From: Octopus vulgaris
Taxonomy: Eukaryota
DNA length: 64,000 nucleotides
Assembly (NCBI GenBank): GCA_951406725.2
Contig: OX597838.1
Location: 43,524,001 to 43,588,000, forward strand
Reading direction: 5' to 3'
The position numbers and the translations under genes were made by a program. Of the stretch, positions 16,438-61,573 are shown piece by piece; within the stretch, counting starts at the first letter, position 1, and each line of letters starts with the position of its first letter. The notes below the pieces were generated by a model. It was given only the letters and a program-made list of their open reading frames with translations. It was not told where the DNA came from and ran no database searches.

Positions 16438-16478
16438 TGGCTGACGACTAGCATACTGCTTGAAACTCAAGATTACCA
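16438..16478 (+). ncRNA. Degenerate minimal hammerhead ribozyme motif (Penelope-type remnant)
   Basis: TGG-CTGACGA-CT-AGCA-TAC-TGCT-T-GAAA-CTCAAGAT-TA-CCA: stems I and II present, stem III mismatched. Confidence 0.5.
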
Positions 16479-17110
16479 ACGAATTTGAATCAAACTGTTT
16501 TTAGTCCACATATATATATATATGTGTGTGTGTGTGTTTTGTTGCCCCTTTTTTGTATCACCTGTCTGGATGTTTTGCGTTCTTGTCCCATTTTTGTATT
16601 TTATATATATATATATATATATATATATATACACACACACATTCATATACATATGCACGTATATATATATGTAGTGTTTTTGTGCTTAGATATCCTTGGC
16701 TATGAAAGGTGTTTGTTTTGATTATATTTCGAAATATGTGTGCATGTACAGGTGAGATTGTAACATTGACTAATCAGGACTCACAAATACATTTAGTACA
16801 GTCATTACAATACAGTTTCAAACAAACATATCAACAACTAGGTACACAATTAAGTACCTGGCAAAATTACCTGACTGATAGCAGCAATGTCAGATGAATC
16901 TCATTGAGATTTACCTGACAGTAATTAGAAAATGGTAGTCCACTGGTGATGTGGTGGCCTTCATCAGTTGCAATTTACATGGAAATAAAGAATCCCTGCT
17001 TGAAACAACAATCTCTCTTTCATCTCATCACACATCAAACCTTTTCTTCAAGATTTAGTCTTTCTCACAAAGACAGGTGAGTTTTGTTGTTGTTTTTTTT
17101 TTGTTCTGAA

Positions 17111-58648: not shown

Positions 58649-58874
58649 GTAAATATATGGGTTTTTGTTTCTTTCTTCATCATCACCACCATCATCTTTG
58701 TTTTACTGTCCACTTGTCTATGCTCAAATGGGTCAGACGGAATTTGTTGAGGTGGATTTTCTGCAGAAGGATGCACTTCCTGTCACCAACTCTCACCTGT
58801 TTCCCAGCAAGGTAATATTTTTCCCCATATCCTTAAAGCCAGAACTTTTAAGCATCTCTCATATATATATATAT

Positions 58875-61573
58875 AGTAGTAACAGAAAAGAGGAATTTCG
58901 ATTATCCCCACGTGGTGTGTTGTAATGTATATAAGAAATTAAAAATGGAAAATACGCACACTTACATAGTTTTAATATGATTTTTAATATATCGACCGGT
59001 TTTGCTATCGCTATTCATAATATTATGTTTTACTTATTTGAATATATATTTTTTCTTAAGAAGAAATTTGGTCCATGTTGTGTGTGATGAGATCCACGAG
59101 TGAATGACTTCATAAGTAGATAAATAAAGGGAGGTAATTGGTTGTCATTATTGTTATTGTTGTGGGTAAGGGAGATAACTGTTCAGCTTTCAGTAATAGG
59201 GAAATATATATGTGTACAGACAGAGACAAGTTTCAAAAACCTTGTTTAGTTGGGGATTTATGTACAGTGATGTAATCGTGAATTGAAATATGTAAAAAAG
59301 ATAAAAGTTGGTTGTGCATGCATATTAAGACGTGTTTTGTATTTTTCAATGAAAAAAGTTTCTTTATTTAAACGTTCTAGTTGAGAGATTGCGTCTTTGC
59401 ACTGGTAGAAAGGGAAGACTGTGAAATTTGGTTTGATGCTATCTGCACATTTTTCTATATGTTCACTGAGAGGAATTTGTTTGTATTGCGGGAAACGGAT
59501 TTGCTCTTTATGTAGAGTGGTTCTCTTTCTCAAGGTCATACTTGTTTGTCCAATACAGCGGTGTCCGCAACCTAAGCAGGTTATTACATAAATCAAGTTC
59601 TCAGAGGCACAAGTGAAACTAGTTTTAATTGTAAACCTCTGTCCTTGTTTGAAAAGGAAGTCCGAGCCTTCAAGCAGGTTGGGGTAGGTTCCACAGTTCG
59701 GGTGTCCACATTTTTCAACCGTTGGTTTCGTGGTTGTTTTGTAAAGCTTCGCATTTGTTAGTAGTCTCTTTAGCGATTTGTCTTGTTTTTTGCATTTGAT
59801 GAGTTTGTGTGTTTTCAGGATGTCGTTCAATTTTGGATCTCTAGTTAGCAAAGGGAGAGTTTGCACAATAGTGTTGTATGCCTCACTGTTTCTGGGGTTG
59901 TGTGTTGATATAAATAGTAATGTTTTGAGTTGAGGTGCGTTGTTATGTTTTGTTGTTCTTAGTGTTTTTGTGTCTAATTGTTTGGTACGTTTAATTCCCT
60001 CGTCGATAAGTGAGGGTGGATATTGTCTTTCAATAAGTGTTGTTTTGAGGTCTTGAAGACGAAGGTCCCGAGTTGTTCTATCAGACACTATTGTGCAGAT
60101 CCTTTTTGTTAAGTTAAAAGGGATGTTTATTTTTATGTGTTTCGGGTGGCATGAGTTAAAGAGAAGATATTGTTTTGAATCAGTTGGTTTATAATAAATG
60201 TCAGTTATGATTTCATTGTTGACTTTTTTTATCATGATGTCTAAAAATGGGAGTTTTTCTTTGTTATATTCCATTGTGAATTGAATGTTACTATTTATGT
60301 CATTTAGTGTTGTTTTGTAATCCAAAAGTTTGTTGATGTTCTTCTTCCAGCTGATAAAGCAGTCATCCAGGTATCGCTTCCAATTTTCTCTTATCTAGAG
60401 GTAAAATGGCTAACCATATTTCTGGAGTGATACTTCATATAAGGTGAATTCAAAATAACCCAGTATTAGGTTCGCAAGAACAGGAGCTGCTTTCGTCCCC
60501 ATCGCAATTCCGCAATTTCTGACGATAGTATGTGTCATCAAATAGGAAATAATTGTTCTGAAGTATAAATTTTAAGGATTCAATAATAAAGATCCGGTTT
60601 ATGCGTTCCGGGAGAGCTTTGGGGTAATTTTCCAACCAGAATTTAATTGCTTTTATTCCATAGTCATGGCGGATGTTGGTGTAAAAATTGATAACGTCGA
60701 GGGTGACCAATATTGCCTCTTCATTAATCGTTTTTGGTAGGTGTTCTAGCATGTCTAAATCATCCCTAATGAAGCTTTTGATGTATTTCAGTAGGATGTC
60801 TAGAAAATTGCTCAGTCGGTGGGTTTCACAGGCCGGCCCAGCTACAATGGATCTTAAAGTCAAGTCTTCTGGCGTTTGGATGTTTATATATTTGCCTGGA
60901 GATTGTTTGCAGGCTTCATTGATTATCTTGTTCTTGTGTATTTTAGGGAGGCCGTAAAAAAGACTGGGTTTACATTTGAAGTTTGTGATACAGTCTGTTT
61001 CTTTTTCTGTCAGGCCTTTTCCATGCAGAAGAATTAAGGATGCAAGATTTTTCATGGTTTTTTGTTGTCTATAGTTTATCACTTTTTCGTAGAAGGCCTT
61101 GTTTTCTAGTAGGGATAGTACTAGTTTTTTATAGTGTTCTGTGTCCATCAGGACTACAGCACTTCCTTTGTCAGCTTCTTTAATTGTCAGGTCTGTGTCG
61201 TTTTTTAGTTCAATCAGATTTTTCCATTCTAGATTGTTGAGGTTCGGATTAATTTTTCGTTTATTGGATGTGTAGGGAAAATTTTGGATATGGTTGCAGT
61301 AGTCATCCAGTGTTTTATTCCTACCCTTATGTGGAAGGTAATTACTTCTGTTTTTGACCAGTGATTCATCTTCGTTGTCGTAGTCAGTGCTTCTGCGAGT
61401 CGTAGTTTTCTGCAGAATTCCGAAATATTGTCTTTAATTTCATTATGGTTAGCTCTTTGTGGGGTTGGGGTGAACTTTAAACCTTTGGCTCGTATATTGA
61501 TTTTTGTTATGGATAGAGTTTTCTTTGATAAGTTAATCACTTTGGGTTTCTCCTGTATGTTTTGTTCCAACAT
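58875..61573 (-). mobile_element. Decayed Penelope-like element (RT + GIY-YIG endonuclease + pseudo-LTR)
   Basis: KGLKFTPTP, IKEADKGSAVV, FYGLPKIHK, LDVINFYTNI, WKRYLDD, LPFLDIMI, YYKPTD..YL..SCHP, NLIYVITC..C..CIGQT..LR.R..H; several frameshifts. Confidence 0.92.
58989..59023 (-). ncRNA. HHR-like motif with A3-U8 core in the Penelope pseudo-LTR
   Basis: ATATT-ATGAATA-GC-GATA-GC-AAAA-CCGG-TC-GATAT; palindromic stem III ACCGGT; GUC triplet; G12 appears mutated to A. Confidence 0.5.

Follow-up and report, generated by a model that had tools for sequence, protein, structure and literature searches.

We analyzed hammerhead ribozymes carried by Penelope-like elements (PLEs) in a 64,000-nucleotide (nt) stretch of the Octopus vulgaris genome (assembly GCA_951406725.2, contig OX597838.1, positions 43,524,001 to 43,588,000 of the forward strand), referred to below as the window, and we followed the same ribozymes through the genome. 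The pairing partners at core positions 3 and 8 covary in this genome, and the covariation is real. We consider it likely that the hammerheads in the pseudo-long terminal repeats (pLTRs) of these elements are still slow self-cleaving ribozymes in which the 3-8 pair has stayed Watson-Crick through changes of its letters. The window is a repeat-rich part of the 2.8-Gb genome, and the named homologues nearest to its retroelement proteins come from octopods and other molluscs.

The genome was sampled with 100 evenly placed 10-kb stretches (1 Mb), which were scanned with positions 3 and 8 left free at a score of at least 8. This sample gave 42 descriptor matches, 39 of them Watson-Crick at 3-8, as an initial annotation of the window had predicted for a relaxed scan of this kind. 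The pairs were C-G (24 matches), U-A (10), G-C (4), A-U (1), U.G (1), C.A (1), and A.A (1). U3-A8, the commonest pair other than C3-G8, had been missed in the list of pairs that the annotation gave. Control scans with the reversed sequence and with four descriptors carrying a broken UGA or GAAA box returned 2, 2, 4, 4, and 2 matches, and ten dinucleotide shuffles of the sample returned 2 to 7. When each family was entered once, 24 of 27 entries were Watson-Crick, against a permutation mean of 14.6, and none of 200,000 permutations reached 24. Three of the U-A matches belong to a single tandem array, and the copy behind one G-C match has its core duplicated. We found no family in which a non-pairing 3-8 combination was fixed, mismatches other than the U.G wobble being minority copies. 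Fifteen of the 39 paired matches were not C3-G8 and escape CUGANGA-type searches, as had been proposed. By extrapolation, intact-looking motifs would number about 109,000 in the genome, with a pair other than C3-G8 in about 42,000 of them (95% range, 24,000 to 69,000).

Descriptor scans and within-window BLAST placed six families and 11 copies of type I minimal hammerheads at 16438-59023, with the core spellings CUGAUGA, CUGAAGA, CUGACGA, GUGAACA, and AUGAAUA. At least six families, about 11 copies, and these five spellings had been claimed for this span, and all of them are present. The copies, their truncated relatives, and one associated open reading frame (ORF), which encodes reverse transcriptase (RT) and GIY-YIG domains, are as follows.

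16438..16478 (+), family E hammerhead, CUGACGA (C3-G8), with a stem III mismatch in this window copy; stem III in family copies is ACUCAAGAGU; the family has a U10.1-U11.1 mismatch; 877 genome candidates
27297..27334 (-), family A hammerhead, CUGAUGA (C3-G8), forming the left arm in a pair of inverted pLTRs (27265-27484)
27772..27809 (+), family A hammerhead, CUGAUGA, intact; stem III ACUCAGAGU; the cleavage triplet ends in A17
33075..33127 (-), inverted, 5'-truncated family B copy, broken within the core
33139..33189 (+), family B hammerhead, GUGAACA (G3-C8), which with the preceding arm forms a palindrome of about 260 nt (33009-33267); 1081 exact matches to a 30-nt pattern (control, 0); the family has an extra G between 9 and 10.1, a 5-bp stem II, a palindromic stem III AAUAUU, and U17
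37848..37900 (-), inverted truncated arm of the duplicated family B copy
37912..37962 (+), second family B hammerhead, within a 1.65-kb local duplication
44903..44978 (-), boundaries approximate; inverted family F hammerhead that has lost 2 nt from the 5' strand of stem I
46307..46384 (+), family F hammerhead, CUGAAGA (C3-G8), with a 51-nt domain II (long stem II) and palindromic stem III ACAUAUGU
48959..49036 (+), family F hammerhead with the same sequence as 46307-46384
54003..54063 (-), decayed family D relative with C3 changed to U and a broken GAAA box
54510..54572 (-), family D hammerhead, CUGAUGA (C3-G8), with G12 changed to A; the family majority has GAAA
58989..59023 (-), family C hammerhead, AUGAAUA (A3-U8), with G12 changed to A; 1390 genome candidates; the family has a 2-bp stem II, a palindromic stem III ACCGGU, and C17
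59258..61575 (-), frameshifted Penelope-like ORF with RT, thumb, CX4CXXC-type linker, and GIY-YIG; family C donor element

Six of the 11 copies (two each of families A, B, and F) passed the strict descriptor, against a mean of 0.14 and a maximum of 2 strict matches in 100 dinucleotide shuffles of the window. Lesions private to the copy mark five of the 11, and the window's sole A3-U8 copy, like the family D copy at 54510-54572, bears the change of G12 to A. The description of the motifs as minimal hammerheads holds for the family majorities, which have full cores. The 11 copies are not independent, local duplication and inversion reducing them to about seven insertions: both B copies lie inside one 1.65-kb duplication (99.3% identity), two F copies have a 471-nt stretch in common at 99.8%, with the remaining F copy as the inverted partner. 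Every family is abundant in the genome, with 877 to 1390 first-look candidates apiece, and 5'-truncated, tandem, and inverted pLTR copies are present, often in (TA)n.

The majority sequences of families A to F keep U4, G5, and A6, A9, G12, A13, and A14, A15.1-U16.1, and H17 in type I order, and the family consensuses retain both N3:N8 complementarity and the GAAA box. The literal C3-G8 consensus (CUGANGA) describes families A, D, E, and F and misses B (G3-C8) and C (A3-U8). For family C, we examined 29 other best-matching loci, chosen for likeness to the window copy, and their 34 motifs had A3 in 34 cases, U8 in 33, G12 in 33, and the full core in 32. G12 was also near-universal in public-run contigs covering this family (four runs with four organism labels), and the 1-Mb sample held three damaged family C copies only. 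Rfam at its gathering score gave no match in the window or in eight representative loci, the C3-G8 families included, and with an E-value threshold its output for the window was microsatellite-hairpin noise only. Within family A, a subfamily (L122, L164, and L097) has U4 changed to C (CCGAYGA) together with a change at 11.1.

The link to Penelope elements that the initial annotation drew was borne out. Families A, B, C, and F are firmly tied to Penelope-like RT/GIY-YIG elements, such an ORF lying beside the motif in each, and families D and E are tied to them weakly, by one locus each. The family C motif lies about 270 nt behind the ORF at 59258-61575 (-), whose homologues have PF00078, PF26215, and PF01541. 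Family B copies are mostly short, often with an inverted truncated arm, and the long copies lead to an RT/GIY-YIG ORF (Pfam GIY-YIG, 9e-5); among 30 loci fetched, the G3-C8 motif was found 985 to 1064 nt downstream of the ORF in all 15 loci with a B-type ORF. In family A, a Hydra-type ORF with RWK and DKT motifs begins downstream of the motif in L266 and ends upstream of it in L261. In family F, a Hydra-type ORF with a CxCX5C linker and without CCHH lies upstream in L242. A Hydra-like ORF begins downstream of the family D motif in 1 of 25 loci (L290), and a Hydra-like GIY-YIG remnant lies upstream of family E in 1 of 20 loci (L184). By these motifs, families A and F belong to the Hydra clade, and families D and E probably do as well. 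The ORFs of family C, of a second A3-U8 family (C2), and of a related U3-A8 family have Neptune-type motifs (CX2-5CxxC linker, CCHH, DKG, and GxKF); "Neptune-like" is a label that follows the motifs given in PMC8557442, the tree having no reference Neptune sequence. Family B and its relatives B2 and B3 have a short linker (reduced CX2-5CxxC) plus CCHH, and their DK motif is DKS; "Nematis-like" is our working label for them, given without reference sequences. Families A to F are truncated ends of coding elements and not nonlong terminal repeat (non-LTR) retrozymes, which are noncoding tandem monomers of 170 to 400 nt, each with one hammerhead.

Some further observations concern the carriers. 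A noncoding repeat at L124 (362-nt tandem unit), L120, and L127 has a U3-A8 type I hammerhead of canonical appearance with a 6-bp stem I and a 4-bp stem II, and the L124 tandem repeat, which fits the definition above, is a candidate non-LTR retrozyme. About 20 nt upstream of the family B core, a branch-point-like ACUAAC is followed by a pyrimidine-rich stretch ending in YAG (L317:4112-4142; 10 of the 30 loci L201-L230), suggesting an intron end beside stem I with a putative splice acceptor, as in Drosophila Penelope. Searches for relatives found none in viral contigs and four stray contigs in prokaryote genomes. Neptune-like animal ORFs occur in two contigs filed as bacterial assemblies (L426 and L427, the latter with a C3-G8 hammerhead behind the ORF), which are probably host contamination.

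The G3-C8 pair can be placed among close relatives. Families B, B2, and B3 form one clade (support, 100/99) and are alike in having an extra G after position 9, a GUCRC/GYGAC stem II, and a short stem III. All 15 long B copies have G3-C8. The B2 protein is 53% identical to that of B, with intact ORFs of up to about 1310 amino acids and the motif about 550 nt behind the ORF (L339, L338, and relatives); B2 has 3394 genome matches, and C3-G8 is present in 97 of the first 100. B3 (36 to 45% amino acid identity) has C3-G8 in 17 of 20 copies, one of these with C9. From metagenomes we collected 49 loci and examined the 29 with a near-complete C terminus. Ten had a clear motif 100 to 170 nt behind the ORF, with C-G in seven (two nearly identical) and U-A in three; one further locus had a weak C-G motif, and 18 had no motif. 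None of the ten clear motifs had G3-C8 or a mismatch, and one of the three U-A motifs (L377) also had A9 changed to C. Because the sister families and the metagenome relatives carry other pairs, G3-C8 is, on this comparison, a derived double transversion in one family. A locus with G3.G8 (L214), considered as an intermediate family, was ruled out, as 17 of 20 relatives have C3-G8.

A3-U8 occurs in two families of the Neptune-like clade. The C2 protein is 62% identical to that of C on a fragment, and the stem I sequences of the two families differ, each self-compensating. All 10 fetched C2 copies have A3-U8; a pattern search gave 228 matches, and 94 of the first 100 have U8. U3-A8 is found in the related family, whose stem III is likewise ACCGGU; it has 1502 matches, A8 in 96 of the first 100, and U3 in 26 of 26 inspected copies. 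Nested in this family is a U3.G8 subfamily (4 of the first 100 matches, all identical; L232:4601-4650, L308, and L310), whose copy in L232 adjoins a nearly intact ORF; with this nesting, U3.G8 is unsupported as an ancestral bridge. The A-U and U-A families stand apart from the C3-G8 elements at 99/97, their branching order being left open, in a tree that omitted six loci of less than 170 amino acids (the C2 fragment included) and five loci without a match.

The C-G/G-C and A-U/U-A switches between sister families are compensatory changes. The term "covariation" had been applied to unrelated families compared within the window, a use that does not stand; the genome-wide comparisons of sister families now justify it. 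Compensatory double transversions between sister families argue that the active fold is selected, and the survival of the swapped pairs in related high-copy families suggests that this selection still operates.

Our comparison with published systems took in PMC4209133, passages of its supplement, and parts of the other sources named below, and statements on those sources apply to the parts covered. Natural U3-A8 hammerhead cores have been described (Perreault 2011, PMC3088659), and U3-A8 occurs in Cercyon PLEs with about 1,300 matches (Cervera and de la Pena 2014, PMC4209133). The system itself and 3-8 covariation in PLE hammerheads (U3-A8) are thus already known, and natural 3-8 covariation is not new in itself. 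The minimal hammerheads of PMC4209133 resemble those described here in being type I and lying in pLTRs, in inverted pairs, in the frequent extra nucleotide between 9 and 10.1, in the short palindromic stem III, in the many unrelated families per genome, and in the U3-A8 variant. That paper reports C3-G8 and U3-A8 only, with no G3 or A3 core in the supplement passages; the octopus genome adds the G3-C8 and A3-U8 families, the U3.G8, A9C, and U4C subfamilies, and traceable switches between sister families. The Perreault 2011 variants share U3-A8, weak stems II and III, and the U10.1-U11.1 mismatch seen in family E, and section 8 of that paper, compared apart from its figure, names neither G3-C8 nor A3-U8.

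In the laboratory, G8C abolishes activity and C3G partly restores it (PMC8495972), and engineered G3-C8 also appears in PMC3884650. The same C3G/G8C swap partly restores cleavage in the hammerhead of PAc, a Poseidon element of the anole (Frangieh 2024, PMC11167929). PAc, like the elements here, has a PLE pLTR hammerhead, and its engineered swap is the natural state of family B; it was a laboratory control in a Poseidon element, whereas here the swap has become fixed in a Nematis-like family that numbers thousands of copies. The variants of Lunse, Weinberg, and Breaker 2017 are similar in short stem III, PLE association, and dimer cleavage, judging from their title and from PMC6765202. Hydra-clade hammerheads (Craig 2021, PMC8557442) match families A, D, E, and F in the ORF motifs RWK and CxCX5C, in lacking CCHH, and in an ACUC-N-GAGU type of stem III, and by these features the four families hold nothing new. 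File S2 of PMC8557442, where the core search used cuganga, has C3-G8 cores only, and a spot search of its consensus files, a weak test, found no Naiad hammerhead with a swapped core. Nothing on natural G3-C8 or A3-U8 was found in the parts covered of PMC6765202, PMC6155905, PMC7229834, and the methods of a 2026 retrozyme preprint, nor was either pair found as a natural core in the literature searched, a scope that excludes figures, unseen supplements, Lunse 2017, and Arkhipova 2017. What appears to be new is the natural occurrence of G3-C8 and A3-U8 in high-copy families linked to coding elements, the presence of all four pairs in one genome, and the traceable switches.

We folded 10 motifs as monomers and as two strands; the C2 input was a copy with A8, and its stems alone were used. 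The monomer stem III hairpin was unfavorable in all 10. The stem III self-duplex reached -7.0 to -9.7 kcal/mol in families A, C, D, E, and F and in the U3-A8 family, and the two-strand minimum-energy structure was a dimeric hammerhead for C, for F, and for a relative of C with identical stem III. The proposal that a palindromic stem III favors the dimer therefore fits A, C, D, E, and F, is marginal for B, and has no counterpart in its sister family B2.

A dimer model has been put forward for PLE hammerheads, the minimal forms of which are inactive as monomers and weakly active as dimers (PMC4209133), and cleavage by the PAc hammerhead needs the element's protein (PMC11167929). In the octopus elements, read-through transcription of tandem or inverted copies would produce an RNA with two motifs, and the palindromic stem III strands of these could pair with each other to form a dimeric hammerhead, probably with help from the protein that the element encodes. 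Cleavage after H17 would then be carried out by G12 and the 2'-OH of nucleotide 8. Base 8 would serve mainly to position its 2'-OH through pairing with nucleotide 3, and since it is this positioning that is needed, any Watson-Crick pair could serve, at some rate cost. Przybilski and Hammann reportedly found in 2007 that all four 3-8 pairs are cleavage-competent in vitro. Such competence is partly echoed in section 8 of PMC3088659.

Several observations weigh against the view that these hammerheads remain cleaving ribozymes with a selected 3-8 pair. G3-C8 rests on one family and is absent from the metagenome relatives. The lone A-U match in the 1-Mb sample (L089) is not family C and may be due to chance, and one U-A match (L141) is doubtful and chance-like. 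The family B stem III self-duplex is worth just -0.2 kcal/mol, the two-strand fold leaves this stem open, and many B copies, including both in the window, have an upstream inverted arm able to sequester the motif. The B2 hammerhead has A9 changed to C, and so fails the minimal hammerhead core at A9. Its stem I is bulged, and its stem III, which is not palindromic, has a self-duplex energy of +1.4 kcal/mol; the A9C core and weak stem III hint at relaxed catalysis. Variants of the core have also spread, namely, the U3.G8 subfamily and the change of U4 to C, which is present in four of six full-length A-like copies in the 1-Mb sample. Mutating the hammerhead of the anole PLE left its insertion in vitro unaffected, and no RNA sequencing reads ended at the cleavage site (PMC11167929).

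Findings of this kind would be expected if the hammerhead fold were kept as a structural or protein-binding RNA element of the pLTR, with cleavage weak or dispensable and the 3-8 pair selected for folding, an explanation that we take seriously but regard as unlikely. It would account for the spread of B2 despite A9C and a poor stem III, for the recurrence of A9C in L377, for the marginal stem III of family B, and for reports that cleavage-dead mutants insert normally in vitro (PMC11167929) and that minimal PLE hammerheads cleave poorly (PMC4209133). However, the 3-8 pair has been described as part of the active fold (PMC8495972), the catalytic set (U4, G5, A6, G12, A13, A14, A15.1-U16.1, and a non-G17) is kept alongside it in the families examined, and the signal is gone once GAAA or UGA is replaced in the descriptor.

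We find it highly improbable that G3-C8 and A3-U8 arose as frozen accidents, through double changes hitchhiking in a few master copies with the pair itself unselected. Each would require two transversions that restored pairing by coincidence, fixed non-pairing combinations were found in no family, and U3-A8 has turned up repeatedly (both clades, a tandem repeat family, and Schistosoma); these points stand against the confinement of G3-C8 to one family and of A3-U8 to two related families, the mismatched single copies (G3.G8 in L214 and L460; A3 with A8, G8, or C8), and the propagation of the U3.G8 subfamily. Lastly, although relaxed one- and two-mismatch scans of the window yield many spurious matches, five of the 11 window copies fail the strict descriptor, and Rfam detects none, the scarcely credible idea that the motifs are chance matches of a loose descriptor in AT-rich repeat DNA is refuted for families A to F by the six strict matches in the window where 0.14 were expected, by the 42 against 2 to 7 matches in 1 Mb, and by the constant placement of the motifs behind PLE ORFs, seen in this genome as well as in unrelated metagenome contigs.

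Slow self-cleavage with a conserved Watson-Crick 3-8 pair thus stays our preferred reading of the pLTR hammerheads. A wider proposal, that all four pairs as well as A9C and U3.G8 evolved from C3-G8 ancestors within active retroelement families and still cleave, and that G3-C8 and A3-U8 are undescribed natural classes, is more tentative and may well prove too broad.

Other hammerhead-like sites in the window were examined and set aside. The candidate at 14626 (-) lies inside a Ty3/Gypsy-type RT region, the AUGAAUA sites at 20648 (-) and 8110 (-) lie in an inverted-repeat element and lack a matching stem I, and 45547/45725 are antisense of family F upstream sequence. Sites at 45185, 28345, 16967, 56891, and 60519 lack a second box or stems, and 49770 and 34329 were also rejected. 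Two sites are doubtful: 55448-55536 (+), which is U3-A8-like with a 10-bp stem I and G12 changed to U and is related to the L141 match, and 53000-53102 (+), a single C3-G8 match with a long domain II and no relatives in 1 Mb.

The window has further features. At 17111-19988 (-), two long frames overlap and show no introns; one of them encodes an SH3 domain, and they may resemble nephrocystin-1. An FHA-domain coding exon is present at 22952-23719 (+). Transposon remains include a broken Ty3/Gypsy-type gag-RT-RNase H element at 12244-15700 (+), an 813-amino-acid non-LTR RT frame with a PHD-like finger at 29608-32049 (-), and two mariner-type helix-turn-helix remnants at 41692-42123 (-) and 47248-47667 (-). 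The region 32100-50300 is a nest of direct and inverted duplications that reach 947 nt at 98%. It also has a 107-nt tandem array, at 33545-34137 and 38315-39121, and perfect hairpins at 35134-35229 and 39531-39640.

The hammerheads of PLEs cut poorly, need help from protein, and were dispensable for insertion in the sole reconstituted system. The compensatory double transversions between sister families amount to the classic rescue experiment carried out by nature, and the families (C-G, U-A, G-C, A-U, U.G, and A9C in matched backgrounds) form a ready panel for relating cleavage rate to transposition success. In this genome alone, the intact-looking motifs missed by standard descriptors would number about 42,000 (24,000 to 69,000). 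If the wider proposal is true, the G3-C8 and A3-U8 classes number tens of thousands of copies, CUGANGA-anchored surveys overlook about a third of animal hammerheads, and cleavage chemistry would be under selection in Penelope elements although it looks dispensable in vitro.

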